From: a virus | Reading direction: 5' to 3' (one strand) | IMG/VR virus record: IMGVR_UViG_3300049491_000465 | Span: 1-64,000 of that record | DNA length: 64,000 nt | Shown: positions 30,989-52,265 of the stretch, piece by piece | Layout of the letters: each line of letters starts with the position of its first letter | How positions within the stretch are numbered: position 1 is the stretch's first letter | Program-made: the position numbers and the translations under genes | The notes under the pieces: generated by a model | Told to the model about the DNA's origin: nothing | What the model saw: the letters and a program-made list of their open reading frames with translations, nothing else | Databases searched by the model: none

Positions 30989-31018
30989 AATAATGTTGCT
31001 AAATAATTCGTTTTTAAG

Positions 31019-31026
31019 TAGATTTG
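31019..31026 (+). promoter_or_regulatory. Bacteroidota-type -7 promoter element TAGATTTG
   Basis: Matches TAnnTTTG in the gap before 31044 and the giant ORF. Confidence 0.55.
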
Positions 31027-31043
31027 ACAAAAAGAAATAGGTT

Positions 31044-33020: not shown

Positions 33021-36000
33021 ATGGCAGAAGATCAATTATCGAATGAAGCTCAAGACTTAGAGCTTCCTCAAGATCCTATTCAGGAAACATCTGTTCCGGA
33101 ATCATCTATTCCAGAGGCAGATCCTCCAGTTAAAAAATCATATTCAGTTCCAAAAGAGCATGTTGACTTTTATGGATTAACATCCATATATGGAAATTCT
33201 GATGCTGATGTTTTTGAAATGCAAAAAACAAAACCTCAGAAGATATTATCCATGATGCCGAAGGAAGAGGCTTTCAAACATTATTCTGAAGAGGCTAAAC
33301 GAATGGGTCTTGATTGGACTCCAGAGAAATTCGAACAAGATTATTCTTTTCGTGAAAAACAATATGCTAATTATAAAAAAGGCGTGTTTGATCATGGTAC
33401 TGGATTTGACCATACATTCAATAGAAGTTGGTCGAATCTTTTCGCAGACATGATATCTCCATACGAATTCAATCCATCAAGTGCATGGGTAAAAGTCAAT
33501 CCTCTTGATACTCAATTTATACATGAAGACGGAGAGCTTAAACGTGTAAAAACAAAAGATGAATCCATGTATGATCTTGGGTTTGTTTTGACTGATATTC
33601 AAGGTGATAAAGTAAAAAACGTATATGGTGATTACGTTAAAAACGAAAGGAAATATAAAGAAATAGAGATCGGTGGAAGAAAAATGAGAGTTCTCGATCT
33701 TGAAGCTCATAAAGATGATTTCTTTAATACTTCAAGAAACAACCCTGGTCCTGAAGGGAATACTGTTCTTGTTGCTTCTGAACTTCCAGACGGAACTCCA
33801 GCTTGGAAAGAAGAGACCATCGGTAAAATATCCGGTAAAGTTCATAGTGATGAAGTTGCCAGTGTTTACGGGCCAAGATCAATGAGACAATCATGGCATG
33901 AAAATCTATGGATGGCTTCACTTCCAAATGCAGCAGCTTCTATTCAAACATCTATTGTCGGTTTTGCTGATTATATTAAAGATGCTTTTGGATATGGAAA
34001 TGTTTATCTAAAAAATATGACTGGCGGTATTGGATCGACAGAATCCATTAGTGCGTTATATCAGGCTGGAACACCAGACTGGTTAGATAAAGCAGATAAA
34101 GAGTATAGGGATCATGCTGCTTGGATGAAGCCTAAAGCACCAGAGAATGTTCGTGGTGCTGGTGCTTTTGATAGTGCTCAATCTTTCGCTTGGAGCGGAG
34201 GGGCTGTTGCTGGTGAATTAATTAAAATGATAGCAGCAAGAAACTTCTCTTCATGGGCTGGAAAAACAGTTGGCATGACTCAGATGGGTGCTGCTAAACT
34301 TGGAGGATACATGGGTTCTGGAACCATGGCTATTTCTGCTGCTGATCAATTTAAGCAATCAATGATTGATAATGGTATATCTGAGGATAATCAATTCCTT
34401 CTGTATGGTCCAGCATTAGTTTCTTCATTTTTTGTTGAACGACTTGGCGGTAACATCCTTGATGATGGACTCAAATCATTCTATGCTAAACAGAATGTTA
34501 AAAAATATGTTGATGAAGGGATTCAGGAACAAGTTAAATTGTTCGGATTAAAATCTGCTTCTGAAATGTCAAAAGAACAAGTTAGATCAACTGGTAAAGT
34601 TGTATGGAATAAGATTTTCGATGCAAGTAAGTCGATGGGTGCTTTAGGTGTTAAGGCCGCTGGTGTTGCTGAGAAATATGCCCCTATATCTATTAAAGCT
34701 GCATGGGAGGAAGGAATGGAAGAAGCTGTTGAAGGAAGGATTTATACTGCTTTAGAAACTATTCACGATATGCATCAGGCTCATGATGCAAGAATGGGTA
34801 AAGATCTTGATCGATACACATATTCTTCATCTCCAGATGAAAAGAATTTTTATGAGGTAGACCGTCTTACTGGAATCAAAAGAAAGATTAGTTCTGAAAC
34901 ATACGAAAAGATGTCTTCAGCTCAAAAGATTAAGCCTGGAAACGGAATGTTCGGAGAGTATAATCCTGAGCTTGGTCTTATTTCTAACTGGACAAATAGA
35001 GCTACCGAAGGTCTTGTTGAAGACTTTGTTCTTGGTGCTTTTGCTGGTGGATTAATGACTGGTGCTGGAAAGCTTACTAATGGAAAAGATGCTCAAAAAG
35101 AAAAAACTCTTCAAGATTATGTTGTCCGTGGAAATGGCGATATAATGAGAAGTAAGTTTGCAGAGATGCATGAGAAGGGTCTTTTTGGACCAACAGACAT
35201 AAACACTCAAGATAAAGTTCATAACCCTCAAGATGAGAATTCTTTAAGTCTTAATGACATGGGTTATCAAACTGCTTTGAAAGAACTTGAAGAAGCTGAA
35301 TTAACTTTTAAGTTAACTGGACTTGAAGGAGATGCTCTTAAAGAAATGATGGAGTCTGAATACGGACATTCTCTTCTGAAGGAGGCTTATAACAATGTGG
35401 GCAAACAAAGAGATCTTCAGTCTGAAATAGATGATATTAATAAAGAGATGTCTGAAACAACAGACCCTCAATTAATCAAGAATCTTCAAGAAAAAATTAC
35501 TGATAAAACAAGGTTAAAGGAAGACTTGAATATTCAGTTGGGAGAGATCAGATCTGGAGATCGTATGATTCAAAGTGTTTCTGATTACGCTATAAAAGAT
35601 TGGAGCTCACAAAACAATACTGGTATCATCGATCCTAATGGAAATAAAGTAACTCCTGGTATAGCAGAATTGAAAAACGTAAGTGATCGTTACGATTCTA
35701 AGAAAGCTGCTGAGATTGAAAAAATAAATGAAGCGAAATCAAAAAGAGTACAGCTTGAAAATGAGGTCGGTTCTTTTTCTAAATCAAAAATAGATCCATT
35801 AAGTGCTGAATCAAATGTTTTTGAAAAGATCTCTGATATTCAGATAAAAGCTTCTGAAGTTGGTTTATCTGAATCCGGAACTAAATCAATGATGGATAAA
35901 CTTCAAGGTATTCGAAAAGATATTTTGAGAGGTATCGATCAATTTTTTACAGCGGAACAAATAACTGAAGCAGAAACGTCTCCTGATGAAGAAGCATTAA

Positions 36001-39000
36001 TGACTATGGCTAAATCTGGAATAGCTGGTTCTGATGCTGAAAAGATTGCTAAAACTTATGATGATCTTGATAGATCAATTAAGTCATTCAATGTTGATAA
36101 GAAGCCGGAAATAAAAAAAGATGACTTTGTTCAATGGACTCAATCTGGTCAATCACAATTTGATCAACCCAGAAAAGTTACGAAGATTTCTGATGACGGT
36201 GAATTTGGATTTGTAGAAGGATCTGATACTGGAATTCCTATTTCTCAATTACATGATCCAAATTACACAGGGGGTCGTGTTCGTGGATCTATTCCTGAAT
36301 CTTTTGATGAATCTACATTTAAAAGAAACTTCTACGACACTTATATTGATACTCAAGGAAATGAGGTTAGTATCAATCAAACAATGTCAGATCTCGCAAG
36401 TAGAAAAATGAATAGTGAAGATGAGAAGACTATTGAACTTTTGAATCAAGCTATTTCAAATAATGATTACCTGGCAAATGTTAATCACAATGTTTTAAAG
36501 GATCTTTCAAGCAGTAAAGATATTAATCTTGGTAAATACAAGCCTTCAGATGAGTCTATCTTAAATGATGATGAGTATAAAGCTGTAATAAATGATCTTG
36601 CAGATAAAAAGAATAGACTTAGAGATCTTTCTGAAGTTCAAAAAAAGGATGCTAATAACAAAAAGAATAGAGAGGGAAAGCTTCGTTATAACGATTACAA
36701 AATGCGTAATGACATTCTTGTTCTCGCATCTAATGTTGAGCATATTTCTCTTGATTCAAGAAACGAAATAGCAAGATTAAAAGCTCAGATATCAGAAGCT
36801 TTAGATTTGATTAAAGATAGTTATAGTAGTGAAAAGCAATACAAAAGAGAATATCTTGATCAAGTCGATCCGTTACTTGTAAAGGCTGAAACTATTCTTC
36901 ATTATGAATTTAATGGAGATAATAGAATTGAAATAATTGAAGGTATAACTGCTCAGTTTAAGCAGTATAAAGGATATGGTCCTTACAAGTCTCAAATCTA
37001 TCACAACGCAAGTGAGTTTGTAATGCATGATTTTGAAAATGTTTTTGATTACAGTTCTTTTAGTGAACAGGTGGTTAACAACGGAAAATCTAAAGGGGCT
37101 GCTTTTATGGCTAACATTCAGTTTGCCAATACATATTTCACAAATCATCTTCAAACTATTGATCGATTGGATCCTAAAAGATTCTTTGATTTTTATGCGA
37201 ATTCTGTTGCTGGATTAGATTTAGAATCAGGTCAAGTTCCTTCTTATGAACAGATTAAATCGATCTATCATACTACTGCATTCATGTCAAATCAGAAGAC
37301 TGATCTTCTTTGGAAGGTTCAGGATATTCTCACTGGTGCAAAGAATGAGAAGTCAAAGGAGATGCATTTCAATAGAGCATTATTTCTTCGTGGATTTGCT
37401 GGAACCGGAAAGACATCTTTAGTAATTAAATATGCTTCGAACATATTCTCTGATATGAACCAGAGAGATTTGGTTATAGATGTTGTTGCACCAAGTACAG
37501 AGCTTCAAAAATCATTGAGTTCAAATCTTGTTTCCTTTAGATCAAATTCTACTAATCCGAGTATGGATTATTATTCATTAGTTGATCACATCTTAAACCC
37601 TAAGTCAACTATTGACAAAACAGATTTGATTATAATTGATGAGGCATCTAATTTAAGCAAGAGTCAATTGAAAGATCTTAGAACTGCATTGAGCAAGTCT
37701 CGTGCAAGCAAAAGACTTTCTGTAATATTCCTTGGTGATCAGTCTCAAATGACATCTGTAAACAGTACAGTGAATGAGCTTGTTGCTGTTGAGAGAATCA
37801 TGGAAAGAACAATGCCTACAACTGAGGTATTTCGTTCTGGTGCTGCTGACATTAGTAATCTTCAGAACTCATTCCGTAGCTCAACATTCCAGAGAAAAGA
37901 AGCGATTCTTCCGAAAGGAACTTACGATAAGGAAAAGAACAATGGTCTTCATTATTTTGGAGGTACAAAAAAAGAAATGTACGATCAATTCATTTCTGAC
38001 TTAAACGACGGTGGTGACTTTAAAAAGAACAACACAGCATTGATTGTTTACAAGAAATCTGATCGTGAAGCTGCTATGAATTATGTTCGTAAAGCTTTAA
38101 AGGATGGATCTTTTGATCTTGATTCAAAAATCAAAACAATTGAAGAGGGTGAATTCTCTGCTCAAGGTCTTGGGTATGGAAGAATTTATGTAGCAATTGA
38201 TCAAGCTGATGCTGCTCATTTGTATAACCCAGCAATGCTCACTGCTATTTCCAGAGCAAAAAGAATTGATGATGAACATAATGGTTTTGCTTCAGTTCTT
38301 TCCACAAGAGGATTTAGCCAGGAAGGATCTCCTCTTATTGTTGAAACAAAAACTGCTTCTGCTGAAGATATTGAACGTCACAAATCTTGGGTATCATCTA
38401 TCATAGGTATGCCTGTTGAGTCTTCTGACAAAGCACAAAAAGAAGCTTCATCTACAATTTCTGATGTTACCAGTGCAAACTTCAATTCATTAAAATCGAA
38501 CCTTAGTTCCATTTTAGGAAAAGGAAAAATTGAATTTACTGAAGGAGGCTTTATTGCTGATGGATTAAGATTCAGATACAAAATAAAAAACAAACCGGTT
38601 CAATCTGTAACTCAAAAATTATCTTCAGCAACATCTCAATCTGAGACAGATAGAACATTGGATCCTCATGCTAAAAGAGGAAATGCTGTTCATAGAATTG
38701 TTGAAGCACATTTGTTAAAGCAACAAAAGAAAGGTGGTAAACTGTTTACCAAACAAGATATTGATGCCATCAAAGGGTATGTGAAGAGTTATAACGATCA
38801 GGTAGCTAAATGGAATGAATTGGCTAAACCTGAATCAAGACTTCAAACTATCGATCTTAATAACGATGAGGCTACATTTGAGACTAATAAGTTTATCCAG
38901 GATGTGATAAGTAATGTTGCAATTCCTATTGCAAACAAACTTAATCAAGGAGGTAAGTATTCTATTCCGGAATCTGTTATTGGTATTTATTACAATGACA

Positions 39001-42000
39001 TTGCTGGAACCATTGATATTATCGATCATGTTGGAATGGATGGTGACATCCCTGTCGTTGACATTCTCGACATCAAAACACTCACTCCTTCAGCATACAA
39101 GTTTTTTGGTGATGGAAATGTTGAATCAAAATTAAAGCTTCCAATAATCACTTCTCCGACTGGTGAAACTTATGCGGCAAGCGGATTGAATAAGGCTCTT
39201 TCTCAATTAGCAACATACAAAGCTATGCTTGAGAATGGAGATACTGAGACTGGTTTTAAACCAATGAAAGTTCGTAACGTAACAATCATTAAATCAAGTT
39301 TGACCGGTGCAAATGAAGTGTCTTCAATTGTGAATGATGATTTTGTAACATACGATACTGAATCTTCTGACTTCAAGAAGTTTAAGGATTACGGTGATAT
39401 GACTGTAAGTAATGGTGTTATTCTTCAAAACAAGAATACTCGTAACTATGATCCAAGTGATGAAGCATTAGGTTCTTTGATAACGACTCCTGAAGGAAGT
39501 TCCGTTGAAGTTACTGGAAGCTTTAAAGATGTTGATGGAAATCAGTCTTATGAATTAAACAACGACATCAACAATCCTGTGTCTTCTGATAAGTTTTCCG
39601 AATTGGAGTTAAATAACATTTCTAAGGAAATATCCGAAGATCCAACAATGATGAATAGCGAGAGAGTTTACAAACGATCTGCTGTAAGTCATTCAAATGG
39701 AAACACTTTCTCTTTCTCTACCGCTTCAACTTCTGTTGATAATGGTAAGCCTGGATATGCAAATGATCACTTTAAATTCAAATCTGAATTCATGAAGGTC
39801 ATTGCTCCAAAGATGAATTTCGGTTCTCCAAATGCACCGAAAGTAAATATGGTATTCCATCCGGAGCTTCAGTTATTAAATGACAAAGGTGAACTACAAA
39901 TGTTCAAGAATGTTGTTGCTTCATACATATCTGAAGATTCTATTTCTGATATAGTTAAAGCCGCTAAGACTTTGCCTTGGGCTACTGGAATGACAGATGC
40001 TCAGATCATGAAGGAAATAAAAGATCGTAACTATTTGTTGCTTTCAACTCTTCCTCATCCTGATTCTAATTTCGGTAAAACAGAGCGTGATATCGATTAT
40101 ACCGATCAGGCACAAGTTCAGAAATTGATTGAAAGAATCAAGAATGGATTTACTACCGATGGTGTTGCTGATAAGTTCAAACCACAATTAGTTCAATACC
40201 ATACAGATCTTGTTTCATACAGATCTTTAGGTGCTAAGAATCCAGGTGAAGTATTTGCTACTGTTAAGCTCAAAGGTCTTTCTAATCCATCTGTAATCTA
40301 TGATGGAAAGCAAAGATCAATGGACTCTCTTCTTACAGGTTTAAGTGCTAAAGGATTCAAAATTGGAAAACCATACTTTGGATCAAAACTTTACCAAAAG
40401 GTAGATGCTAATGGTAAGGTTTCGAATATTGCATCTTGGGCCGTTGATGTATGGAGAGTTTCTCCTTCAGTTGATTCTTCAAGAATAATTTTAAGAACCG
40501 GTGAATTTGATGATAATCATTACAGTGAGTTAAAGAAAAATATTAGTGATTTAAGATCTAATAAAGCATTGACTCATGGTGAGATAAATCAATCATTGGC
40601 AATGGGCTTTATTCTTCAGAATAGATCATTCTTGATTGATCCAACAACCGGAAAATTAACAGAAGAGATTCCTGGATTATCAAACTTTATAAAAGTTGAT
40701 GGCCATACAATTGATCTTAATGTTGATGGTAAAAAAACAATTCCAGCATTAATCGATTCTTTATCAAAAGCTATTGACTTGTTGAATGGTTCAAGAAAAT
40801 CAAACAATAAAGTAGCCAAGAATTTACGTCAGTCAGTTCCTTTTGTGATTGGAGATAATAACATGCGTGTTATCCCTTCCGGAATGGAATCTAAGCTGTT
40901 CACATCTGCATCTGATGTTCATTCCTTTGGAATTGAATTAGGAATGTCTGTCGTTAAAACAGAATCAGAAACAGGTGTTTATGGAGGTATGACATCTCCA
41001 TCTAAAAGCGATGAGGATTTATTGAAAAACATGGGTATTATTGATCCTAATCCTAATAAGGGTGGTATAGCATTCATGGAAGATATTGAGGAAGAACCAG
41101 GCATTCCATTGAGCGGCCATGAGTCTTCTTCAGATCCGGATTCCACACCAGTAAATGAGAAGGATCGTACATTCTACGATTTTGCTACAAGATACTTTGG
41201 TGACATTCGTATTATGAATGAAATCAAAAAAGATGTTTCAAGAATACTGATCCAGAATTCAAATTACAATCGTGATTTGAATACTCCTACAATGTCTAAT
41301 ACTGACATGCTCGCAAAAGCTTGGGACCATTATTCAAGATTGTCTGCGTTGATCGCAAAAGATTACAGTTCTATTGATGTGAAGAGTGGTAACAATCATT
41401 ACACTAATCTTTCAGAAATCTCTGGAGATACGGCACATCTTTTATATGAGGATAAATCGGCATTTTCAAGATACTTCAATTATGCAGTAGGATCTGATCA
41501 AGAGTTATTTTTTGCTATTGTTGATCGTGCACTACCAAACTTGAATATCAAGAAAATGAATAAGCTTGATATTGGAGAAGCTCTTGCTTTAAGAATGAAC
41601 TCTTTCCTTGATCGTGATGCTGAAGGTGTTACAGAAGAAGAAAAGGATATCATGTCTGCCAATGAAAACAGTCAGACGAGTGTAATGGATAGTATTAATT
41701 CCAGAGCATTCACTGATACTCTTTCCGGGTTTGTTCATCTAATGAAAAACCATGTTAAGCTAAAGGAATACTCAATTGATCCTAAAACAGGTGATCTTGT
41801 TGGTTCTGAAACTGGAGGATATATTAATCCTAAAACTATCGAAAAATCACTTGTTGATTCAGCTCAAACATCTTCTCCATTAAAAGGAGACTTGATGGAA
41901 CAATGGGTTAATAATTTCTTAGAAATTGCTAATCGATCTGGAGTTGGTTCTCCGACGTACAATCACTTAATGAGTTTTCATGACGATTTCTTTGGAGATC

Positions 42001-45000
42001 AAATGTCCCATAAATATCTTCGTGACAATGCTATTAGAACCGGAGGAGAAAGTTCTTTGATAGAAATTAAGACTGGTGCTAATCCTGAGATTATTAAAGC
42101 AAAAGCAAAAGCTTCAAGCGACCTGCTTAGTGCATTATACTCTCATATGGTATCTGTTTCCAGTAAGAAGTACATAAAGATGAATTTGAATTCTTCTGGT
42201 GATAAAATTTCCAGAAAGATAAAAACTCAGTCTCTTGCTGTTGGGGTTCAGGTTGTTCAGGATATTAAATCAAGAATGAACAATGCGTTATTCTCAATGT
42301 CAGAGAATGGTATTGAAATTAATCCAAAGGTTTCTGAGCTTATCACTGAGGGTCAAAACCAAAGATACAGGATCAATTCAAGTGGTGTATTCGATTTGGC
42401 TGGAGGTAAAGCTACTAAGCTGATCGGTTTCACAACTCAAAATGGAAAAATAGTAGACTTTGTTATTCCAGATGGAATTGCCAGTCAGGACATTAAAGAT
42501 TTGCTGAATATAATCAACCTTAAAGGTGATGTTGTCTACACAACAACAATCAAAACCTATATGGGTAATGAATCAGACAGTAATCCGGATCCTGAAAAAA
42601 GAAGAGATCGAAGCAAGATTGCTGAGATTGTCGGTATGTTCATGTTGACAACTAAGAATGCTGTTAATCCATCTCCTTCAGAAACATCTCTTTTAGATGC
42701 TTATTACAAGGAAAACGGATATACAAAAGACTCTCTTGATGATTTGAATGATGACGGAACAGTTGACATGGAGAAAACTGGAACAGACATCTACAAGCCA
42801 ACAGATCTTTATCGATTGATTGAGAATCTTGCAAAAGTTCAATCTGAAATCGGATTGAATAATCATGCTGATTTCTTCTACAATGTAAATGGAGATAAGG
42901 TTTACAAGCATACTAATGGGAATACATTCTTGAGATTATTCAGTAATGCTGATGTTGGTGATAAACTTCCTACATCAAACATTAAAGAATACTATAAGGA
43001 ATTCGTTCTTTCTGATCAGAACATTGAAAACATCATCTACAATCCAAATGTCGCAAGAGCAAATGATGGTAAGATTAAAGTTCTTAACACATTAATGGAT
43101 CCGAATTCAGATCATCATATCATGGATGCTTATGTTGTTGACGGTACGGAGGGTAACTTCAAGTCTGTTCAACAGGGTAAATCAATGACCGATATGGATT
43201 ATGTAGATTTCTCCATAAACGGAATGTTTGTTGACGATATTTTGAGTGGTAAAAAGATTCAGAATATTAGACTTCCTTATCATCAGATATCAAACAAGTC
43301 AGCTTATGTTGCAGAACATAATTTCGGAAGCAATAAATTTACCCATACAGAAAATGGTATAATTGCTGATCGTGCATGGATAAATGAAAATATTAGTAAG
43401 ATATTTTTCTACCATAATAGTGCCAGAAGAGTCTCTTATCTAAGATGGAGAAACGCATTGGTATCCATGGGTTTTAATGTTGACAGAACAACATTTGAAG
43501 GATGGATGACTGATCCTCAATCTTTTAAAAACACTTTATCCATGGCTTCTCAAAGTCTTGGAAAAGTTAATAAAGGTGCGAGCTTTAACGATTTCATTAC
43601 AGGTAGTACTGAACTTGTTGAAAATCGTGACTACAAAATAGGTAGAGATGGATCTGTTCTTCCGGGTAACGCTCCAATGATGACTATTGACAGTGTTTAC
43701 AATTGGAAAAACTTCAATAAATTAAAAGAGGCCAGTGCTGGTGTTTCAGGACTTACTGTTGATGAATTGATCGATTCTTTATTCTACAAAAGACATATTG
43801 ATACAGCTTCACATTTCTCAAGAAATGGATTCAAACTTGATCAAAGATTAAATAATAACAACTGGTTGTTAAAGCAATCTGATAAGAAGAATGCAAAAGG
43901 ATTCAGTATTTGGAAAGTCAATCCTACTCTTGAATCTTATTTGTACGCTTGGCATATTGCTGATCACAACTTGAGTCAGCTCACAATGGGAGACGCTTCT
44001 CAGTACAAAGATATTTCTGATGTAATTAAAAGAAGCTCTGGTCCATTCGCTCAATCATGGAGACCAGATACAAGTTCACCTAATGGAATTGGTAAGTTCT
44101 CCAATGCTGTTATAATTGAGGATATTCAAGGTGAAACATACGAACAACTTGAAACGATATTTGGTCAACCAGGAAATCATGTTGAAACAGATGGTCTTGG
44201 TATAATCAATCCTATTTCTTTGACGATAATGAAAAATTCTTACGGTGGTGAGGAGCTTGGAGTTATTGGAAAAGGAATGCTTAAACCGGTTTACTTTAAA
44301 CCAGACATGAATACCAATGATGCTGTTTATTTTAAATATGCATTATTACCATTAACACAACAAGTTCTTGAGAACTCTTCAATTGCAAGAGAGACCTTCA
44401 GAAAGATGGTTACTCCAGAAATGTTCGAGATGTGGCAATCTGGTAAGACATTCGATGAAATAGCTGATTACGTCGTTGAAAATGGATTACAGCAAGACAT
44501 GTTAATGCAAGCTGTTTTCAAGTCTGGTAACAAAACCGGTAATCGTGGTGTTCAAAAGTTCGATTCTCCGGAGTGGACTACATCTGTTGAGGTTGATAAT
44601 GACTTCTTTGGTATTCAGTTGAATCCTTCTCAAGATGTTGAGAGTACTGAGAATATGGCTGGTCCATCTCAGCTTAATGCAACTCTTGGAATAGGAAGTC
44701 AAAACACTGAAAGAGTTAGTGCTTTAAATGAATTGAAAGCCGGGATTGCTGTCGATGCTTTAGCTAAAATGAAAGGCGACTTTTCTACCGATGGTAATTT
44801 TGACCCTAAAAAGTTTGAAGATTATCTTCGTAAGATTGGCCAGAAATCATCTGAGAAAACTGGTGAGATAACTAAGTTCGCTGAGATGTTGTACGATGAT
44901 AAGGTTGATTTGAACATACCTACTCAACGAACAAAACTTATTCAAATGTATATGAACCGAATTACATCAGACGTAATTAGTCCAAGATGGAATGGTGTTC

Positions 45001-48000
45001 GTATGTCTCAGGCTCCAGGATTTATGTTTCCTATTTACATGGATGTTGATGGTAATCCATACATGGAGAATGAATACAAAAAATACTTTGGAGAACCGGG
45101 TCCTGAATCAATGTCAAGATCACTTCAACCAATGAAGTTCTATAAGGATGAGAAGTTCATAAATGAAATAACAAGTCAGGAAGAATTCGCTTCACTAATG
45201 GAGACCGGAGAGGTCTTTGTTAAACCAGGAGATGTTATTGTTCCATTTAGTTATTTCGAGAAATTTGGATTGAAAGAATACATTGATGCTGATCCTTCTT
45301 TCAGTTTGAATGATGTATTTATGGTTCAGCTTGAAGATGGTAATCTTGCTAATGTAAGATCCATGAACGAAGATGAAACATCAATTCTAATTGATCGTGC
45401 TTTTGATTCTGCTAAAGACAAAAAAGAAGAAGGACTTGATCAAGATGCTATTACTTTCCTTCAAAAGAAATTCAGTTCAGCCAGTGCAGCGAAAGCATTC
45501 ATAAAAGAATTCAGAGAGGCATTACAGGTTATACCGGATCGTATCCCAACATCATCTACTTCTTTTGGGTGGATAGGTGAGATTACCGGTTGGATAAATG
45601 ACAATGGAAACACTGTTTTCACATCAGCTCAAAAGAATATCCTTGATGGTGGTGACTACGATATTGACCAATTGAATATCTACTTCAAGTTCCTTGATTC
45701 AAATGGTAAAATTGTAAAAGGAGACTCAAAACAAGGTAAGATCAATCAAATGTTTGATTTAATTACTGAGTACTACAACGATCCTAAAAACGCTGAGATA
45801 TTCATGAAGCGTTTGAGTATGGAAAAACTTGAAAGCCAGGTTGAAGAGATAAAAAGAACTCAAACTAAATTCAAAGGACATCATAATGACTTTGGTACAA
45901 ACATTTACTATTACGATAACATCAAGCAAGGAGATTCATTAATTGGTATTTTCGCTAACATCGTAAAAACATTCTCGTATTTATCTCATGTTTCAACAAA
46001 AGCAGATGGTCTGTCTTCTAAAGTTGAAATCAATTCTAATTCATTGAACTCATCAGGTGAATACATCTCAAATGTTCTTGAGAGATTCTTGAATGCTGCA
46101 ATGGATAATGTGAAAGAGTCTATACTTGGATACCTTGGGGCCACAGAAGATGCAGGAAATCTTATTGGTGCTGCTGCAATCAAAGGGATGGATGAGATTG
46201 AAATTGCAAACTTGTTGAAAAACGATGTTGTTGTTGATGTCTTCAGAAAGATGAAAAACAGCAAGCGTGTAACAAGTGCAAAAAAATCAAACATACTTGA
46301 TGTTATTGATTCTAAAATTGAAGACATAACAAAAAGAAATTCTATTGATTTAAGAGAAGATCTCGAAAAGCAACTCAAAGAATTAAAAGGTAAGATTGGT
46401 GCTCCAAGTGAGGATGAAGGAATTGATGATGCCTATGTTGCTGAATTCGATAGACTTCAGGAAATGATTAATGACGCTGATAATTTTGAGGTTGTAAAAC
46501 AAGACCAGCTTGACGTTCTTTATCGATTAAAAGATCTCGCTTATTTTGGTGAATCAATCTCAAGACTAAATTCAATCATTCGAATTGATAGTGTAGGAGC
46601 TCCTGTATTTGATTATCACATTGAGAAACAAATCAGAGATGTAGAATACAATCTTGGAATGCCTTTAGATGATTTCCTTGCCGGAAAAACCGGATCAAGT
46701 GATTGGTATAAATCAAGAAAAACATACTTAACTTTTGATGATTCACAAAAACTTGAAGAGAGAGAACCGGCAATAAGAAGCTACCTTGATCTACAAAAAA
46801 TAACAAAAGAGTTACCTCACATCATGGCTTATCTTGAAGCTTTGAATGAGGGTCGTAACAATATGAAAAATACATTCATCAGAAATAGTAAGTTGATTCA
46901 GGATTTATCTGACAGCTTCCTTGGTAAGATGAAAATGGATTGGTTCAGATCTGAGAGATCTTATTATTCATTCCATAATGAAGTTGATAATTTCTTTATC
47001 GCTACATTCTTTGGAACTCATTTCAAAGGAAAGATGTTCCAGTCTCAATTTGGATTAACAAAAGGATCCGAGAGTGTAAACATTTCAACGAGAGAGGGTC
47101 GTTATCAATTTGGAATTGAATTCCCTACTTCTGTAATTGAAGAGGCGGATAGAATAAGAAGAAAACCAAAAGAAGAGCTTACACCAAGAGAATTAGATCT
47201 TGTTGAAAACACTTTCTTGAATTCATTAACTGTAAACTCAACTCCAAGTGGAGACTTTCTGGAGTTCAAGAACAGTTGGAAATTAACTGAGGATGATTTC
47301 CGTGATCTTCGTGCTTCATTTAAGAAGTTACCTGCTGCTTGGAAAGAGAAGTTCTATGTTTATCAATTAGCAAAGGATGGGTTCAACTTTACAAAAGGAG
47401 GTCTTTATGAGGCTATGGACAATGAATTGTTCAGAATGTATTCTACGTTCCTGGATAAAGTAAAAGGAGCTGTTGACACATACGGAACCGACAAGGAAAC
47501 TCCATTTGATTTCATTGACTCCAATGGTGTTCTTGTTCAGAAAACTCTTTCTGAGATATTTGATTCCAATTTCCTTGAAGATGTTGGTGCTATGTCTGAT
47601 GAGATGAATCTACTTCCTTTTGAACCAAGAGAAGGTGGTTTTGAACCTCATCTACAACCCGATCAACATAAGGTCCGTGAAAAGAATGGAAGCTTTACTG
47701 TTTCAAAGGTTAAGAAGAAAGGTCTTGATTCTACGTTCCAACCATCTTCTAAGAAGACCTTTAATGGATATGATCCTTTGAATTCTGTTCTTACTACAAT
47801 GGATGTTATCCGTAAGATATCAAAGGATACTTACAAGAAATTGAAAAGTGGAGCTGAAGCAACGATCAGGTTTAATGGAAAGGTTCAATACAAATTGAAA
47901 GACGCTTACATTCCGGATGGAACTCTTGTTAGAATAAAAAGTGCTACTTCAAATTCAATAACTGTTCTTCCTATTGTAAGTACAAATCCAATGAATGTTT

Positions 48001-51000
48001 ACCAATCAAAAACTGGTAAGGAGGATTTGTTGAATTCAATTGTTGAAAACTCTAAAAATGATTTGAATTCTAAATTGGCAAAATCAATTTTGGAAATGAC
48101 TGATCCTAAATTCTTACAAAGAGGTTTGGTTAATTTCACCAATGAAGATGCTGATGCTACATTCAATGATCAAAGAGAGAAAGGAAATAAAACTCCTGGA
48201 TACTGGGATCAGGCAAGCCGCACAATAGGTATGAATATGTCTCAAATCAGAGATATAAACAAACTTGAACATGTGTTCCTTCATGAGATGATCCATGACA
48301 TTACATTTAATGCAATGGAAATCACAGATCAGGAAGCTGATTCTTTAGGTGAAAAAGGTCAACGAATCAAAGAATTCAAGGAAAACATCGAGAAGATCTA
48401 CCAGAAAGCTAAGTTGGCTTATACTGACAGCGGTGAGAAACACTACGGAATGAAAGATGCTACGGAATTCCTTTCTGAGGCTATCTCAAACCCTGAATTC
48501 CAAAGATTCTTGTCTAATCAAGAGATTGAAGAATCTGTTGGAACAAGTTTTATCGACAAGGTAAAAGATCTTTACAGAGCTGTTATTGGATCAATAAGAA
48601 ACTTACTTGGTATATCTGAGAAAGATGCTCCATACACCATGCTTGATCAGGTTGTTGGTCTTGTTATTCGTCATGCTAAAGCTGGTGATTACGATTTCAA
48701 AACTTCATCAAATACATCTGAAGGAAAGGTATTCTTCTCTGAAGATTCTAAACCGGAAACCGAAGTGAATGAAACGAAAGACATTATCAATAGTCTTCAA
48801 CCGGACGGATTCTCTAAGACTTATACTCAATATCAAGAAGAGCAGTTAGTTACTGACATCTACAATAGTATCGATCCAAAAACCGGTATCTACTACTACA
48901 ATGGTGATAAGTTCTACTTCAAGAGTAAGGAAGGTGAAATGATGGATGAGCTTTCAGCTAAGAATAAGATCAAAAATGAAGTTGTTCCAAAATTCACTGA
49001 GTTCGAAACCAACTATAAGAATAGTGTTATTGGATGGTTGAACAATGGTGCTCAAGTTGACGGTTCATTGCCAGCTACATTCTTCCCTAAGAAAGGTGGC
49101 ACTTCACGTTACAGCCAGGGAACTCTTGGTGAGATGAGAAGACTTATCGATCATGATGTTAACGATTTCTATGTTCGATATAGTGAATTGAAAAACAATG
49201 AGGAATTCAAGGATATACCTTACATAGCTGAGTTTGAAGGATTTGATCCTATTGTTTCGATTCACAAATCAATCGACGGATCAAACATGTCAATCTCTAT
49301 TTTCGATGCAACATCGTTGAGGCTGAACAAAAAAGGTATCCTTGAAGGCAATATCTTCAAGAAGCATATTGCTGATGATTACGAAGCCAGAAACAAAGGT
49401 GTTACCCTTGGTAATAACGAAGGTGATGTTCGTAGATTACTTCTTGGTCTTCAGGTAATGGCTATGAAAAAAGCTAATCCAGATCTTAAAATCAAACACG
49501 TTGGAGTTCTTGGTGTAAGTAATAAATCAATTGATTCTACATGGGTATTCATGGAAGATTTCGTATCCAATGTAAAGGCTATGAATGGAATTGAGGCAAT
49601 CATGAAAACCCTTCCAGAGTCAATCAAGGATATTGTAAGTGATGATTCATTGCACAAACAGGATTATGATCAGCCATGGATATTTATGCTTCGTAGAAAG
49701 TTCCAGCAACGAGTACAAGATCTTGATGGAATTGAAAACCAAGAATTCAATATCAAGAAAATCAATGATTCAGTGAGTCAAATTGATGCTTATTTGAATG
49801 GTCAAGGAAGTAAAGATGAGGTTCTTAATATGATGATTCATCGAATGGAAGAGATCCAGAATACTTATCACAAAGACGAAGAATTATTGAATGATAAAGA
49901 ATACATCTACCTGTCGAATACTATTCGAGAGATGTCTGCTGTTGCTTCATTTGATAAAAATGGAACCAAGGATCTTGATACTATAAAATCATTCTTAACT
50001 CCAACTCCAGATATCAGTCATGATATTGTCAACTGGGCACAAGAACAGATATTCAAATCAATGAGAATTGTTCAGGATAAAGTTCGTGATTTCCAGAATG
50101 ATAAGTTCGTTCCTATTTTAAAAGACTTCAACAATAGATACTTCAAGAAATATCCGGAACAAAGAGCTATGGATTATTTACAGGATCTTTCCGGTAAAAA
50201 GTTTATGCCTTTATTCAAAACCAGAAAGGTTAAAGATCAATCTGGAAATGATATCGAAGTTAACTCAATGGAGATTCATTGGGACATGAATGATGCCGAA
50301 ACAAAAGAAGCAATCAGAACAAATAAAATATCTACTAAAGATGTTGAGTTTGGTAAGTTCATTGTTGATACTCTTGAAGAGCAAATGATCGAGAATATTC
50401 TCCACTCTAAACGTCATGATAAAGGTTTCAAAAAAGAAGATGCCAAGAAAGATCTTGATCGTAAATGGAGAAGAGGAATGATTCCAGTGATGAGTTCTTC
50501 TGTCAATGAAATGTTAATGAAGAAGGATGCTAAAAGTGCCAAGGCTGCTTATGATAAATTCTTCAGACAATTGACTAATCTTGACGATATCTACGATGAG
50601 GTTGACAAGCAAAAATTAAAAGATACCAAACGTCAAAAGATCCTCAAAGAAATGACTGATTTCTTCATGAATCAAATTGGTCTTGACTCTGATATTTATG
50701 GTTCTGATGCCAGAATGAAAATGATGGGATTAAGAAATGACATTACCGGTCCTATCTTGATGGATTCAAACACTAATGAGAACTTGAGCACAAACCTTGA
50801 GTTGATCACGATGTATATGGTGTCATCAAGTGAGCGTAAACGAGTATTTGACAAGAAGGTTCTTCCTTACGTTAATGCTGCACAAACAATGCTTCATAAC
50901 CCTCAATTATCAGGTCTTGATGGTGATCAGCAGGTAACTAAATCTTATTTCCAGAATTATATCAATTCAGTATTGAAAGGAATGCCTGAGACTACTGATT

Positions 51001-52265
51001 CTAAGATTCTTGGAGTTAATGTTGATGCTGCTATTTCTTCTGTTGTTCAACTTGCTTCATTCAATGGTCTTGCATTAAATGTTCCGGTAGCAGCTTCGTC
51101 TGCATTAATGAATGCCGGTCAATTAATGAACAGTGCAATAGCAAATGATATGGCTACAAATGGTCTTTACGGAAAGGCTGAAGCTATGAAGGCTATTAAA
51201 ATGTTCGGAACTGTTGAGGGTAGAAAGTTCATTGAATCAATTATGGATATGTACAAGGTTGCTGATCGTACAGAAAGAGACATGATGCATAATCCAAGAA
51301 TGAAAGTGACAAACAAGAATATCTTCACTTCCCATCATGCTTACTGGATGAACTGGTACACGGATTATAATGTTCGTGGTATTGTGGCTGCTGCTCAAAT
51401 GATTAAAGACGGTTCTATCGCTGCTTATACTTTAAATAAAAAGACAGGCAAACTTGAGTATGATGAATCAAAAGACCCTAACTTTAAGGGAGAAACTGGT
51501 GAACATTTCAAAAACCACATCAAACAAAGGTTAATCGAAGAGGGTGTTATGAATTCCATGGACGAAAAAATGCCAAGAGGATACGATCACAAGATGGCTT
51601 CTCAATTGAAGCATCTTGCTGACAAACATGTTGTTGGTAACTTGGATGATGCAACAAAAGGTCGATTTGGCCGTACTGTTGCAGCTAAACCATTCATGCA
51701 GTTCATCTCCTGGCTACCTACTAAAATGGTGAATTATTTTGGTAGCACTAAAGCCTCTGCTGTTGGTGGGAAATATGTCACCAACAAGAATGAGCATGGT
51801 GAGGCTGAAACTGTATGGGAACAAACTGTTCAAGAAGGCATCTTTACTACTTTGAAAAACATCCATAGTGAGTTAAGAGAGAATAAATACAAATCAATGC
51901 GTTCTTGGAGTGAAATGAAACCTCATGAAAGATACAATGTCACAAAACTTGGTATCGATTTGATTTCATTCACTGTACTTTACGGATTGTATGCTGGGCT
52001 TACCGGTGACTGGGATGATGAAGAAGGTGATCAAGCAATGGTAGAGGATTCAAGATTAATGAAAGTATTCAAGTATTCAGCAATGGATTATCTTGCTTTC
52101 AATCCATTGAAGATTACAGAGAGTTTATTAACTGTTCCAGTACTTGAACAAGCAGAAAGATTATCAGGAATTTTCATTGGAGATTTTAGTGGAGTAGAAA
52201 GATCACTACCTTTGAGTTCAACAGTAAGATCTTTCTCTGAAGTTTTAAGTGACGAAGAAAAATAA
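33021..52265 (+). CDS. giant virion polyprotein: SF1 helicase + PD-(D/E)XK nuclease + two-barrel RNA polymerase + zincin protease
   Basis: GFAGTGKT (37392), IIIDEAS, LGDQSQ, TAISRAK; GTIDII..ILDIKT..QLATY; ETDG, RIP and GGDYDID (45654); HEMIH (48282)..EFLSEA. Confidence 0.85.
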   Translation: MAEDQLSNEAQDLELPQDPIQETSVPESSIPEADPPVKKSYSVPKEHVDFYGLTSIYGNSDADVFEMQKTKPQKILSMMPKEEAFKHYSEEAKRMGLDWTPEKFEQDYSFREKQYANYKKGVFDHGTGFDHTFNRSWSNLFADMISPYEFNPSSAWVKVNPLDTQFIHEDGELKRVKTKDESMYDLGFVLTDIQGDKVKNVYGDYVKNERKYKEIEIGGRKMRVLDLEAHKDDFFNTSRNNPGPEGNTVLVASELPDGTPAWKEETIGKISGKVHSDEVASVYGPRSMRQSWHENLWMASLPNAAASIQTSIVGFADYIKDAFGYGNVYLKNMTGGIGSTESISALYQAGTPDWLDKADKEYRDHAAWMKPKAPENVRGAGAFDSAQSFAWSGGAVAGELIKMIAARNFSSWAGKTVGMTQMGAAKLGGYMGSGTMAISAADQFKQSMIDNGISEDNQFLLYGPALVSSFFVERLGGNILDDGLKSFYAKQNVKKYVDEGIQEQVKLFGLKSASEMSKEQVRSTGKVVWNKIFDASKSMGALGVKAAGVAEKYAPISIKAAWEEGMEEAVEGRIYTALETIHDMHQAHDARMGKDLDRYTYSSSPDEKNFYEVDRLTGIKRKISSETYEKMSSAQKIKPGNGMFGEYNPELGLISNWTNRATEGLVEDFVLGAFAGGLMTGAGKLTNGKDAQKEKTLQDYVVRGNGDIMRSKFAEMHEKGLFGPTDINTQDKVHNPQDENSLSLNDMGYQTALKELEEAELTFKLTGLEGDALKEMMESEYGHSLLKEAYNNVGKQRDLQSEIDDINKEMSETTDPQLIKNLQEKITDKTRLKEDLNIQLGEIRSGDRMIQSVSDYAIKDWSSQNNTGIIDPNGNKVTPGIAELKNVSDRYDSKKAAEIEKINEAKSKRVQLENEVGSFSKSKIDPLSAESNVFEKISDIQIKASEVGLSESGTKSMMDKLQGIRKDILRGIDQFFTAEQITEAETSPDEEALMTMAKSGIAGSDAEKIAKTYDDLDRSIKSFNVDKKPEIKKDDFVQWTQSGQSQFDQPRKVTKISDDGEFGFVEGSDTGIPISQLHDPNYTGGRVRGSIPESFDESTFKRNFYDTYIDTQGNEVSINQTMSDLASRKMNSEDEKTIELLNQAISNNDYLANVNHNVLKDLSSSKDINLGKYKPSDESILNDDEYKAVINDLADKKNRLRDLSEVQKKDANNKKNREGKLRYNDYKMRNDILVLASNVEHISLDSRNEIARLKAQISEALDLIKDSYSSEKQYKREYLDQVDPLLVKAETILHYEFNGDNRIEIIEGITAQFKQYKGYGPYKSQIYHNASEFVMHDFENVFDYSSFSEQVVNNGKSKGAAFMANIQFANTYFTNHLQTIDRLDPKRFFDFYANSVAGLDLESGQVPSYEQIKSIYHTTAFMSNQKTDLLWKVQDILTGAKNEKSKEMHFNRALFLRGFAGTGKTSLVIKYASNIFSDMNQRDLVIDVVAPSTELQKSLSSNLVSFRSNSTNPSMDYYSLVDHILNPKSTIDKTDLIIIDEASNLSKSQLKDLRTALSKSRASKRLSVIFLGDQSQMTSVNSTVNELVAVERIMERTMPTTEVFRSGAADISNLQNSFRSSTFQRKEAILPKGTYDKEKNNGLHYFGGTKKEMYDQFISDLNDGGDFKKNNTALIVYKKSDREAAMNYVRKALKDGSFDLDSKIKTIEEGEFSAQGLGYGRIYVAIDQADAAHLYNPAMLTAISRAKRIDDEHNGFASVLSTRGFSQEGSPLIVETKTASAEDIERHKSWVSSIIGMPVESSDKAQKEASSTISDVTSANFNSLKSNLSSILGKGKIEFTEGGFIADGLRFRYKIKNKPVQSVTQKLSSATSQSETDRTLDPHAKRGNAVHRIVEAHLLKQQKKGGKLFTKQDIDAIKGYVKSYNDQVAKWNELAKPESRLQTIDLNNDEATFETNKFIQDVISNVAIPIANKLNQGGKYSIPESVIGIYYNDIAGTIDIIDHVGMDGDIPVVDILDIKTLTPSAYKFFGDGNVESKLKLPIITSPTGETYAASGLNKALSQLATYKAMLENGDTETGFKPMKVRNVTIIKSSLTGANEVSSIVNDDFVTYDTESSDFKKFKDYGDMTVSNGVILQNKNTRNYDPSDEALGSLITTPEGSSVEVTGSFKDVDGNQSYELNNDINNPVSSDKFSELELNNISKEISEDPTMMNSERVYKRSAVSHSNGNTFSFSTASTSVDNGKPGYANDHFKFKSEFMKVIAPKMNFGSPNAPKVNMVFHPELQLLNDKGELQMFKNVVASYISEDSISDIVKAAKTLPWATGMTDAQIMKEIKDRNYLLLSTLPHPDSNFGKTERDIDYTDQAQVQKLIERIKNGFTTDGVADKFKPQLVQYHTDLVSYRSLGAKNPGEVFATVKLKGLSNPSVIYDGKQRSMDSLLTGLSAKGFKIGKPYFGSKLYQKVDANGKVSNIASWAVDVWRVSPSVDSSRIILRTGEFDDNHYSELKKNISDLRSNKALTHGEINQSLAMGFILQNRSFLIDPTTGKLTEEIPGLSNFIKVDGHTIDLNVDGKKTIPALIDSLSKAIDLLNGSRKSNNKVAKNLRQSVPFVIGDNNMRVIPSGMESKLFTSASDVHSFGIELGMSVVKTESETGVYGGMTSPSKSDEDLLKNMGIIDPNPNKGGIAFMEDIEEEPGIPLSGHESSSDPDSTPVNEKDRTFYDFATRYFGDIRIMNEIKKDVSRILIQNSNYNRDLNTPTMSNTDMLAKAWDHYSRLSALIAKDYSSIDVKSGNNHYTNLSEISGDTAHLLYEDKSAFSRYFNYAVGSDQELFFAIVDRALPNLNIKKMNKLDIGEALALRMNSFLDRDAEGVTEEEKDIMSANENSQTSVMDSINSRAFTDTLSGFVHLMKNHVKLKEYSIDPKTGDLVGSETGGYINPKTIEKSLVDSAQTSSPLKGDLMEQWVNNFLEIANRSGVGSPTYNHLMSFHDDFFGDQMSHKYLRDNAIRTGGESSLIEIKTGANPEIIKAKAKASSDLLSALYSHMVSVSSKKYIKMNLNSSGDKISRKIKTQSLAVGVQVVQDIKSRMNNALFSMSENGIEINPKVSELITEGQNQRYRINSSGVFDLAGGKATKLIGFTTQNGKIVDFVIPDGIASQDIKDLLNIINLKGDVVYTTTIKTYMGNESDSNPDPEKRRDRSKIAEIVGMFMLTTKNAVNPSPSETSLLDAYYKENGYTKDSLDDLNDDGTVDMEKTGTDIYKPTDLYRLIENLAKVQSEIGLNNHADFFYNVNGDKVYKHTNGNTFLRLFSNADVGDKLPTSNIKEYYKEFVLSDQNIENIIYNPNVARANDGKIKVLNTLMDPNSDHHIMDAYVVDGTEGNFKSVQQGKSMTDMDYVDFSINGMFVDDILSGKKIQNIRLPYHQISNKSAYVAEHNFGSNKFTHTENGIIADRAWINENISKIFFYHNSARRVSYLRWRNALVSMGFNVDRTTFEGWMTDPQSFKNTLSMASQSLGKVNKGASFNDFITGSTELVENRDYKIGRDGSVLPGNAPMMTIDSVYNWKNFNKLKEASAGVSGLTVDELIDSLFYKRHIDTASHFSRNGFKLDQRLNNNNWLLKQSDKKNAKGFSIWKVNPTLESYLYAWHIADHNLSQLTMGDASQYKDISDVIKRSSGPFAQSWRPDTSSPNGIGKFSNAVIIEDIQGETYEQLETIFGQPGNHVETDGLGIINPISLTIMKNSYGGEELGVIGKGMLKPVYFKPDMNTNDAVYFKYALLPLTQQVLENSSIARETFRKMVTPEMFEMWQSGKTFDEIADYVVENGLQQDMLMQAVFKSGNKTGNRGVQKFDSPEWTTSVEVDNDFFGIQLNPSQDVESTENMAGPSQLNATLGIGSQNTERVSALNELKAGIAVDALAKMKGDFSTDGNFDPKKFEDYLRKIGQKSSEKTGEITKFAEMLYDDKVDLNIPTQRTKLIQMYMNRITSDVISPRWNGVRMSQAPGFMFPIYMDVDGNPYMENEYKKYFGEPGPESMSRSLQPMKFYKDEKFINEITSQEEFASLMETGEVFVKPGDVIVPFSYFEKFGLKEYIDADPSFSLNDVFMVQLEDGNLANVRSMNEDETSILIDRAFDSAKDKKEEGLDQDAITFLQKKFSSASAAKAFIKEFREALQVIPDRIPTSSTSFGWIGEITGWINDNGNTVFTSAQKNILDGGDYDIDQLNIYFKFLDSNGKIVKGDSKQGKINQMFDLITEYYNDPKNAEIFMKRLSMEKLESQVEEIKRTQTKFKGHHNDFGTNIYYYDNIKQGDSLIGIFANIVKTFSYLSHVSTKADGLSSKVEINSNSLNSSGEYISNVLERFLNAAMDNVKESILGYLGATEDAGNLIGAAAIKGMDEIEIANLLKNDVVVDVFRKMKNSKRVTSAKKSNILDVIDSKIEDITKRNSIDLREDLEKQLKELKGKIGAPSEDEGIDDAYVAEFDRLQEMINDADNFEVVKQDQLDVLYRLKDLAYFGESISRLNSIIRIDSVGAPVFDYHIEKQIRDVEYNLGMPLDDFLAGKTGSSDWYKSRKTYLTFDDSQKLEEREPAIRSYLDLQKITKELPHIMAYLEALNEGRNNMKNTFIRNSKLIQDLSDSFLGKMKMDWFRSERSYYSFHNEVDNFFIATFFGTHFKGKMFQSQFGLTKGSESVNISTREGRYQFGIEFPTSVIEEADRIRRKPKEELTPRELDLVENTFLNSLTVNSTPSGDFLEFKNSWKLTEDDFRDLRASFKKLPAAWKEKFYVYQLAKDGFNFTKGGLYEAMDNELFRMYSTFLDKVKGAVDTYGTDKETPFDFIDSNGVLVQKTLSEIFDSNFLEDVGAMSDEMNLLPFEPREGGFEPHLQPDQHKVREKNGSFTVSKVKKKGLDSTFQPSSKKTFNGYDPLNSVLTTMDVIRKISKDTYKKLKSGAEATIRFNGKVQYKLKDAYIPDGTLVRIKSATSNSITVLPIVSTNPMNVYQSKTGKEDLLNSIVENSKNDLNSKLAKSILEMTDPKFLQRGLVNFTNEDADATFNDQREKGNKTPGYWDQASRTIGMNMSQIRDINKLEHVFLHEMIHDITFNAMEITDQEADSLGEKGQRIKEFKENIEKIYQKAKLAYTDSGEKHYGMKDATEFLSEAISNPEFQRFLSNQEIEESVGTSFIDKVKDLYRAVIGSIRNLLGISEKDAPYTMLDQVVGLVIRHAKAGDYDFKTSSNTSEGKVFFSEDSKPETEVNETKDIINSLQPDGFSKTYTQYQEEQLVTDIYNSIDPKTGIYYYNGDKFYFKSKEGEMMDELSAKNKIKNEVVPKFTEFETNYKNSVIGWLNNGAQVDGSLPATFFPKKGGTSRYSQGTLGEMRRLIDHDVNDFYVRYSELKNNEEFKDIPYIAEFEGFDPIVSIHKSIDGSNMSISIFDATSLRLNKKGILEGNIFKKHIADDYEARNKGVTLGNNEGDVRRLLLGLQVMAMKKANPDLKIKHVGVLGVSNKSIDSTWVFMEDFVSNVKAMNGIEAIMKTLPESIKDIVSDDSLHKQDYDQPWIFMLRRKFQQRVQDLDGIENQEFNIKKINDSVSQIDAYLNGQGSKDEVLNMMIHRMEEIQNTYHKDEELLNDKEYIYLSNTIREMSAVASFDKNGTKDLDTIKSFLTPTPDISHDIVNWAQEQIFKSMRIVQDKVRDFQNDKFVPILKDFNNRYFKKYPEQRAMDYLQDLSGKKFMPLFKTRKVKDQSGNDIEVNSMEIHWDMNDAETKEAIRTNKISTKDVEFGKFIVDTLEEQMIENILHSKRHDKGFKKEDAKKDLDRKWRRGMIPVMSSSVNEMLMKKDAKSAKAAYDKFFRQLTNLDDIYDEVDKQKLKDTKRQKILKEMTDFFMNQIGLDSDIYGSDARMKMMGLRNDITGPILMDSNTNENLSTNLELITMYMVSSSERKRVFDKKVLPYVNAAQTMLHNPQLSGLDGDQQVTKSYFQNYINSVLKGMPETTDSKILGVNVDAAISSVVQLASFNGLALNVPVAASSALMNAGQLMNSAIANDMATNGLYGKAEAMKAIKMFGTVEGRKFIESIMDMYKVADRTERDMMHNPRMKVTNKNIFTSHHAYWMNWYTDYNVRGIVAAAQMIKDGSIAAYTLNKKTGKLEYDESKDPNFKGETGEHFKNHIKQRLIEEGVMNSMDEKMPRGYDHKMASQLKHLADKHVVGNLDDATKGRFGRTVAAKPFMQFISWLPTKMVNYFGSTKASAVGGKYVTNKNEHGEAETVWEQTVQEGIFTTLKNIHSELRENKYKSMRSWSEMKPHERYNVTKLGIDLISFTVLYGLYAGLTGDWDDEEGDQAMVEDSRLMKVFKYSAMDYLAFNPLKITESLLTVPVLEQAERLSGIFIGDFSGVERSLPLSSTVRSFSEVLSDEEK

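Follow-up and report, generated by a model that had tools for sequence, protein, structure and literature searches.

An RNA polymerase (RNAP) gene of up to ~6000 amino acids (aa) is described as a hallmark of the Crassvirales (PMC10136315). In the crAss-like phage phi14:2, gp65, gp66 and gp67 have been detected in virions by mass spectrometry, and fused polyprotein forms have been mentioned (10.1101/2020.03.07.982082); in crAss001, gp47, gp49 and gp50 are carried in the capsid as cargo and can leave it only after partial unfolding (PMC10172136). Published work indicates that gp66 transcribes single-stranded DNA (ssDNA) and denatured double-stranded DNA (dsDNA) efficiently but native dsDNA hardly, and that QDE-1, a structural relative of gp66, depends on the helicase QDE-3 together with RPA. 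Polyvalent proteins of phages and conjugative elements, among them the virion RNAP (vRNAP) gp50 of phage N4, are very large and delivered by the virion; they join a polymerase, a zincin-like metallopeptidase and nucleic-acid enzymes in one chain encoded by a late gene (Iyer et al. 2017, PMC5512222). Here, we analyse a stretch of 64,000 nucleotides (the window; bases 1-64000 of the 77,884-bp virus contig IMGVR_UViG_3300049491_000465) containing a single giant open reading frame (ORF) that makes up 24.7% of the contig. Analysis of this ORF suggests, with a probability of roughly 0.85, that its product is a single-chain form of the crAss-like virion transcription block: a Cys-free polyvalent protein that would be packaged, ejected and put to use in transcribing early genes.

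Continuity and relatives of the giant ORF

The record is a single metagenomic contig without terminal repeats, and a frame of this length could in principle be an assembly artefact that fuses separate genes; this is highly improbable. Over 19,245 bases the frame contains one stop codon, the terminal one, against 305-854 in the five other frames, and its G+C content by codon position follows a clear gradient (0.45/0.34/0.27). A second assembler gives an identical ORF: a 72.6-kb Logan contig from a freshwater-sediment metagenome includes it entire, with 0 differences and at a depth of 23, although that run is probably the source sample and the match therefore tests the assembler, not the biology. 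A freshwater metagenome of a second study contains 12 pieces of 151 bases that are at least 99% identical to the giant ORF. Among the runs listed as containing the sequence, none is an RNA data set. Collinear ORFs of 6,427, 6,429 and 6,829 aa are found in other assemblies, with cluster mates on 78-kb contigs. The first of these (relative P0002) shares 82% identity across aa 3801-5000, the region used for the search, and is collinear along its full length; the longest is encoded by the IMG/VR genome IMGVR_UViG_3300025093_000019 (79,289 bp, direct terminal repeats, CheckV 100%), of which it takes up ~26%, and is likewise Cys-free with the same series of helicase, nuclease, DxDxD and HExxH. Misassembly can, in practice, be ruled out. 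The single uninterrupted 6414-aa frame reported by the initial annotation is borne out by the stop counts, the Logan contig and the collinear ORFs, and the concern about continuity that it had raised is answered by the second assembly and the collinear ORFs.

A phmmer search of 1.84 billion representatives with aa 3801-5000 returned 113 clusters, about 48 of them 4,500-7,000 aa long and having the same order of helicase (43 relatives), RNAP (112 relatives) and C-terminal block (46 relatives). The giant clusters that were looked up lie on contigs of 75-85 kb and are annotated only as 'hypothetical protein'. A search for related loci returned 0 loci with the single protein as query and 1 locus with an alignment as query.

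RNA polymerase core

The features of the giant ORF are collected in Table 1. A profile built from 30 sequences (window aa 3601-4800 and 29 shorter relatives) matches PDB 6VR4 over gp66 residues 883-2051 with an E-value of 2.3e-40; hhalign comparisons give a probability of 99.5 against phi14:2 gp66 and of 99.7 against crAss001 gp50. The DYDID motif is the sole DxDxD of the giant protein; upstream of it stands a RIP motif (R4174, P4176) and downstream the sequence NAAMDNVK (K4365), and R4174, P4176, D4212, D4214, D4216 and K4365 are near-invariant in the relatives. By homology, the giant protein is confirmed to carry a crAss-like virion RNAP core of the gp66 family, predicted to be of the two-barrel type. 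With polyvalent proteins such as N4 vRNAP it shares the combination of polymerase, zincin-like metallopeptidase and nucleic-acid enzymes in one chain, but the polymerase itself would be of the two-barrel crAss/QDE-1 type, whereas that of N4 is T7-like. Searches with single sequences revealed less: phmmer against PDB with aa 3001-5000 and aa 1301-2500 found nothing useful, and tblastn against GenBank phages with aa 3001-5500 matched phi14:2 gp65 only.

Table 1. Features of the giant ORF, with nucleotide positions in the window.
Feature	Residues	Positions	Strand	Remarks
Whole giant ORF		33021..52265	+	6,414 codons, ATG start, 721.9 kDa, isoelectric point 5.4, 0 Cys
Gly/Ala-rich, mildly hydrophobic region	350-760	34068..35300	+	Kept in 29 relatives
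Predicted superfamily 1B (SF1B; RecD2/Dda-type) helicase	~1400-1760	37218..38300	+	Pfam, invariant motifs, Foldseek
Probable RecB-family PD-(D/E)xK nuclease	~1880-2075	38658..39245	+	Motifs, weak profile matches
Stretch with no family match	2076-3623	39246..43889	+	First part poorly conserved; aa 2900-3600 kept in 29 relatives
Single-chain RNAP core	~3624-4800	43890..47420	+	Homologous to phi14:2 gp66 residues 868-2051
Catalytic metal motif DYDID	D4212/D4214/D4216	45654..45668	+	Aligned to gp66 DFDID 1361-1365
Zincin-like domain	~4994-5215	48000..48665	+	Homologous to gp65 residues 166-353
C-terminal block	5300-6414	48918..52262	+	Homologous to gp65 residues 948-1366 and crAss001 gp49 residues 884-1236
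C-terminal hydrophobic helix LGIDLISFTVLYGLYAGLT	6310-6328	51948..52004	+	Mean Kyte-Doolittle 1.44

Zincin-like domain and C-terminal block

The part of the chain beyond the polymerase matches phi14:2 gp65 over aa ~4994-6384. BLASTP aligns aa 5010-5190 with gp65 residues 146-335 (3e-12) and aa 6195-6335 with gp65 residues 1169-1318 (1e-3), and hhalign of region profiles against gp65 gives probabilities of 98.8 for the zincin-like domain and 97.0 for the C-terminal block. The HEMIH motif lies at residues 5088-5092; H5088, E5089, H5092 and the downstream E5149 are invariant in 8 sequences. The C-terminal block is kept in the 46 relatives counted above; more than 35 relatives end at the identical aligned position, and the native C-terminus is conserved. 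In most of 24 relatives checked, gp65 and crAss001 gp49 among them, the hydrophobic helix precedes the end of the chain by ~100-140 aa. A profile of the zincin-like domain and C-terminal block found no relative in PDB, and tblastn of the C-terminal block against GenBank phages found one unannotated record. By these homologies the giant protein includes a gp65-type, zincin-bearing, RNAP-associated part that is predicted to be a peptidase.

These results bear on three calls of the initial annotation. Its RNAP motif set is confirmed by the sole DYDID and the match to 6VR4, and its C-terminal hydrophobic helix is present and holds its position across the family. Its protease finds backing in HEMIH, the homology to the gp65 zincin region and the invariant ligands, although the Pfam SprT-like match over this region stays below threshold.

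Relation to the split blocks of phi14:2 and crAss001

The giant ORF occupies the position of g067-g066-g065 in phi14:2, after a g071-like gene and smaller genes, and is homologous to gp66 in its RNAP core and to gp65 in its zincin region and in its C-terminal block with the hydrophobic helix; phi14:2 divides the block among three genes (5,398 aa combined), whereas here one gene encodes 6,414 aa. In crAss001, gp50 corresponds to the RNAP core and gp49 to the C-terminal block (hhalign probability 96.6), and the total of 694 kDa compares with 722 kDa for the giant protein; the crAss001 cargo genes are separate and distributed over both strands, and gp47 has neither a Walker A motif nor similarity to the N-terminal part of the giant protein.

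The giant chain might be a true polyprotein that is cut after synthesis or in the capsid, probably by its own zincin-like domain, into gp67-, gp66- and gp65-like pieces, which would then function as their phi14:2 counterparts do. We consider this only slightly less than an even prospect. Cleavage has been proposed for fused forms (10.1101/2020.03.07.982082), and the HExxH motif and its accompanying Glu are invariant; conservation dips at aa ~4,800-4,900, a hydrophilic stretch where both gp65 and the stand-alone relative P0100 have their starts, and some relatives begin near aa ~3,560. However, no cleavage motif was found in the chain, the zincin-bearing vRNAP of N4 enters the virion uncut (PMC5512222), and the hints of boundaries at aa ~3,560 and ~4,834 are weak, most short relatives being assembly fragments.

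Genomic context and cysteine depletion

Genes upstream of the giant ORF encode a crAss-type TerL (phrog_6681, 3.9e-94), portal (phrog_6547, 1.2e-87) and major capsid protein (phrog_11589, 2.9e-43), and the TerL is ~30% identical to Crassvirales records. The ORF at 24581-28495 resembles phi14:2 g071 (muzzle-position) and is followed by three smaller ORFs and then by the giant ORF, an order that mirrors g071, g070, g069, g068 and then g067-g066-g065 of phi14:2; tail-fibre genes lie downstream. From the crAss-type TerL, portal and major capsid protein and the phi14:2-like gene order, the phage is, at the level of sequence, a distant, uncultured crAss-like phage (Crassvirales in the broad sense) of fresh water. 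The three smaller ORFs (28508-32990) remain separate genes before the giant ORF, and two of the three are Cys-free.

The giant protein contains 0 Cys among its 6,414 residues, though TGT/TGC occur 91 and 390 times in two other forward frames; the other ORFs of the window average 1.14% Cys. Each giant relative has 0-10 Cys, gp65-67 of phi14:2 have 4 in 5,398 aa, and crAss001 gp45-gp50 have 7. This absence would fit proteins that cross the envelope unfolded. Cys is also absent from the structural-block ORFs at 14728-15879 (383 aa), 22442-24568 (708 aa), 29513-30988 (491 aa) and 31044-32990 (648 aa), whereas the two ORFs directly after the giant ORF (52643-54976) have 4.5-4.6% Cys. In phi14:2, gp65-68 and gp70 are almost Cys-free, as are gp45-50 of crAss001.

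Both context and composition speak to whether the giant protein is packaged at all. Its membership of the virion is argued from homology, and a helicase together with a nuclease is typical of replication modules; the protein could instead be made late, as a replication and transcription factory inside the infected cell. This is improbable: the gene stands in the structural block, directly after tail and cargo genes, whereas replication functions (DnaB, primase, SSB and Sak4) are encoded in a block of their own on the minus strand; the homologues gp66, gp65, gp50 and gp49 are virion proteins; and the family-wide absence of Cys matches other ejected proteins. The replication block (record positions 57001-76900) encodes DnaG primase, DnaB, an AAA ATPase, SSB, Sak4 and an HNH protein, and a scan of its eight larger ORFs showed no DNA polymerase.

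Helicase module

N-terminal to the polymerase, the chain matches Pfam AAA_30 (1.9e-12; 47.7 bits against a cut-off of 27) and further families of superfamily 1 (SF1) helicases. Walker A extends from G1458 to T1465 and Walker B comprises D1540/E1541. In 30 relatives there is no substitution at G1458, G1463, K1464, E1541, G1572, D1573, Q1576, G1716 or R1745 (Walker A and B and motifs III, V and VI); G1642 is also an invariant column and T1465 is invariant or nearly so, while D1540 is invariant in a 16-row alignment and nearly so in the 30, and T1741 is invariant in the 30 and nearly so in the 16. An AlphaFold model has a predicted local distance difference test (pLDDT) score of 70-90 over the helicase, and Foldseek matches it to RecD2 (3gpl, E 1.7e-11) and also to 9kwf and 3upu (Dda) and 1w36_D (RecD). 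The helicase motif set of the initial annotation is thus upheld by Pfam, Walker motifs and fold, and both sequence and model identify an SF1B helicase with intact catalytic residues, for which 5'-3' unwinding is predicted. Tblastn of the helicase-nuclease region against GenBank phages gave no match, a homologous-protein search with aa 1351-2100 among candidates of 412-1,313 aa found none, and a literature search found no paper on the helicase of these giants, which is not proof that none exists.

A related combination is present in a reference genome. In cr50_1 (Suoliviridae; RefSeq NC_055868.1), the 4,774-aa product KNV26_gp059 carries HExxH (1665), DFDID (3154) and an SF1 helicase in one chain; its RNAP profile probability is 97.6 and its C-terminal helicase matches Pfam AAA_30 at 5e-21. 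The order there is zincin-RNAP-helicase, whereas the helicase of the giant protein is N-terminal to the RNAP; the gp65-type block of cr50_1 is a separate downstream gene (gp060), whereas it is fused here; and hhalign of gp059 with the nuclease profile gave no significant match. The gene for gp059 (4826-19150 on the minus strand of the locus examined) is annotated only as 'DNA helicase; VOG0377', which hides the polymerase.

Probable nuclease module

About 120 residues past the helicase begins a series of nuclease motifs: RGNAVH(1891)..E, PE(1984), GTID(1999)IID, D(2017)IK(2019)T within DILDIKT, and SQ(2062)LATY(2066). Of these, GTID1999IID, D2017-I-K2019-T and Q2062LATY2066 are conserved in the window and its four closest relatives (40-88% identity) and in the genome IMGVR_UViG_3300025093_000019 (G001). 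The PHROG exonuclease families phrog_298 (E 2.3e-4) and phrog_69 (E 4.3e-3) match weakly, and hhalign of the nuclease profile against the phage exonucleases crAss001 gp70 and phi14:2 g046 gave no significant match. The motifs point to a probable PD-(D/E)xK nuclease of the RecB family.

The slot after the helicase varies within the family. Nuclease motifs are present in a sub-lineage comprising the window, P0002, P0003, P0008, P0011 and G001. In most other giants (e.g. P0010, P0014, P0015, P0018, P0019, P0022, P0024, P0026, P0043 and P0065) a second HExxH domain is found instead; its consensus is G.....P.HE..H.V.N, it lies ~800-1,000 residues past the helicase, and it does not occur in the sub-lineage of the window.

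Proposed mechanism

With four enzyme modules, including a zincin-like peptidase, in one ORF within the structural block, the giant protein has the make-up of a polyvalent protein; that it is injected and serves DNA entry and DNA processing, as the initial annotation proposed, is an inference. Homology to phi14:2 gp66 and gp65 and to crAss001 gp50 and gp49 suggests that it is most likely packed into the capsid; it would then pass through the tail in a partly unfolded state, either before the DNA or together with it, and refold in the host, where the polymerase core would transcribe early genes. The helicase and nuclease may open or resect the entering end of the dsDNA genome and so supply ssDNA template to the polymerase, and the zincin-like domain may cleave the chain into functional parts or have the cell envelope as its target.

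It is a tentative suggestion that the SF1B helicase, here accompanied by a RecB-type nuclease, is the missing factor that gives crAss-type polymerases an ssDNA template from the entering end. If so, the fusion of a helicase at different positions (N-terminal here, C-terminal in cr50_1) would mark a general dependence of these polymerases on a helicase, parallel to that of QDE-1 on QDE-3. The main alternative to template-making is a role in conflict with the host, in which helicase and nuclease would serve as a weapon or shield, degrading host DNA or competing with or mimicking RecBCD-type defences at the entering end. Polyvalent proteins often carry nucleases and helicases that are thought to act in such conflicts (PMC5512222), and the variable slot after the helicase, with a nuclease here and a second zincin in most others, is as expected for exchangeable effectors. 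This role seems rather unlikely, however, as the constancy of the helicase across 43 relatives and its recurrence at another position in cr50_1 argue for a core function tied to the polymerase.

Several observations weigh against the reading of the giant protein as an ejected transcription block with its own DNA-processing enzymes. Packaging is argued for this uncultured phage from sequence and from homologues. Both phi14:2 and crAss001 manage without a helicase in the homologous block, that of phi14:2 having no detected similarity to either the helicase or the nuclease module, and most giant relatives lack the nuclease, which is therefore not essential to the common mechanism of the family. 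The assignment of the nuclease to the RecB family is our own reading of motifs together with the weak profile matches: Pfam has no match over the region, and a low-confidence model (pLDDT 60) yields no Foldseek match at E <= 0.001, while VIA-align of the same model places ExoV 7lw7 at rank 47 (Z 4.4). The nuclease of the initial annotation accordingly holds as to its conserved motifs, with weak profile matches and neither a Pfam family nor a fold to match. No fold or family could be assigned to the first ~1,350 aa or to aa 2100-3600 from Pfam, PHROG or hhalign searches. Finally, the N-terminal 2,900 aa have no detectable similarity to gp67, gp68 or crAss001 gp47, so that these proteins may have no counterpart in the N-terminal third.

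N-terminal and middle regions

The N-terminal region at aa 350-760 is enriched in Gly and Ala (21%, against 12% overall), and its highest 19-residue hydropathy is 1.21; therefore, it does not consist of classical membrane helices. Pfam and PHROGs assign it no family. An atlas search with aa 300-780 returned viral hypothetical clusters only; a neighbouring cluster carries LPD22 in 12% of its members, which is a lead only, and none of the Pfam LPD domains matched at E <= 0.1. Profiles of the N-terminal and middle regions found no match by hhalign to gp66, gp67, gp68, gp69, gp70, or crAss001 gp45-47 and gp50. Stronger Gly-rich hydrophobic stretches are present near the N-termini of gp67 and crAss001 gp47, without sequence similarity to the giant protein. 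Of the N-terminal Gly/Ala hydrophobic translocation segments that had been proposed, the enrichment is real and the hydrophobicity mild; the label 'translocation segments' is a guess.

What is new in this architecture

Giant crAss-like RNAP ORFs are not new as such, and giants combining helicase, RNAP and zincin are already present in reference genomes in another domain order. The initial annotation had set the single chain against crAss-like phages in which the RNAP is usually flanked by separate large cargo genes, and had explained it by a fusion of those genes. The first point is partly overtaken by published RNAP genes that reach ~6,000 aa, by the polyprotein fusions in the literature and by the helicase-RNAP-zincin chain of cr50_1. 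The second holds for the gp66 and gp65 parts and the syntenic position; it does not extend to gp67, gp68 or gp47, to which no similarity is found, or to the three upstream genes, which are separate. What is new here is the particular combination: the crAss-like virion RNAP block is completely fused into one chain, and this chain also has an SF1B helicase on its N-terminal side and, probably, a nuclease of the RecB type.

Neighbouring genes

Some features of the genes preceding the giant ORF are recorded here in their own right. The 708-aa ORF (22442-24568) contains three copies of the motif GGS(L/I)Y.MM.Y / GGMTLYELMM (aa 96, 444 and 699), and the ORF at 29513-30988 contains one (aa 117); the giant ORF lacks this GG-x-LY-x-MM motif. 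Two PHROGs without known function match the 708-aa ORF over its N-terminal ~80 aa (22442-22714). The 333-aa ORF at 28508-29509 has an N-terminal low-complexity run of extreme Gly/Ala/Met content, GGGGGGMMGGKGIMGMMGGQGGGGG.

Implications for crAss-like phages

Analysis of the window points to a lineage of uncultured phages with genomes of 75-85 kb that devote about a quarter of the genome to one chain, in which polymerase and helicase are joined and, in the sub-lineage of the window, probably also a RecB-type nuclease. For the step by which a gp66-type polymerase would obtain its ssDNA template in the cell, the giant protein offers a concrete candidate that can be tested. The presence of a helicase-nuclease pair beside an ssDNA-preferring polymerase and the total absence of Cys are the points worth testing. 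The latter may be a simple sequence marker for proteins that are threaded unfolded through the tail, and could be of use in recognizing which proteins of uncultured phages are ejected.

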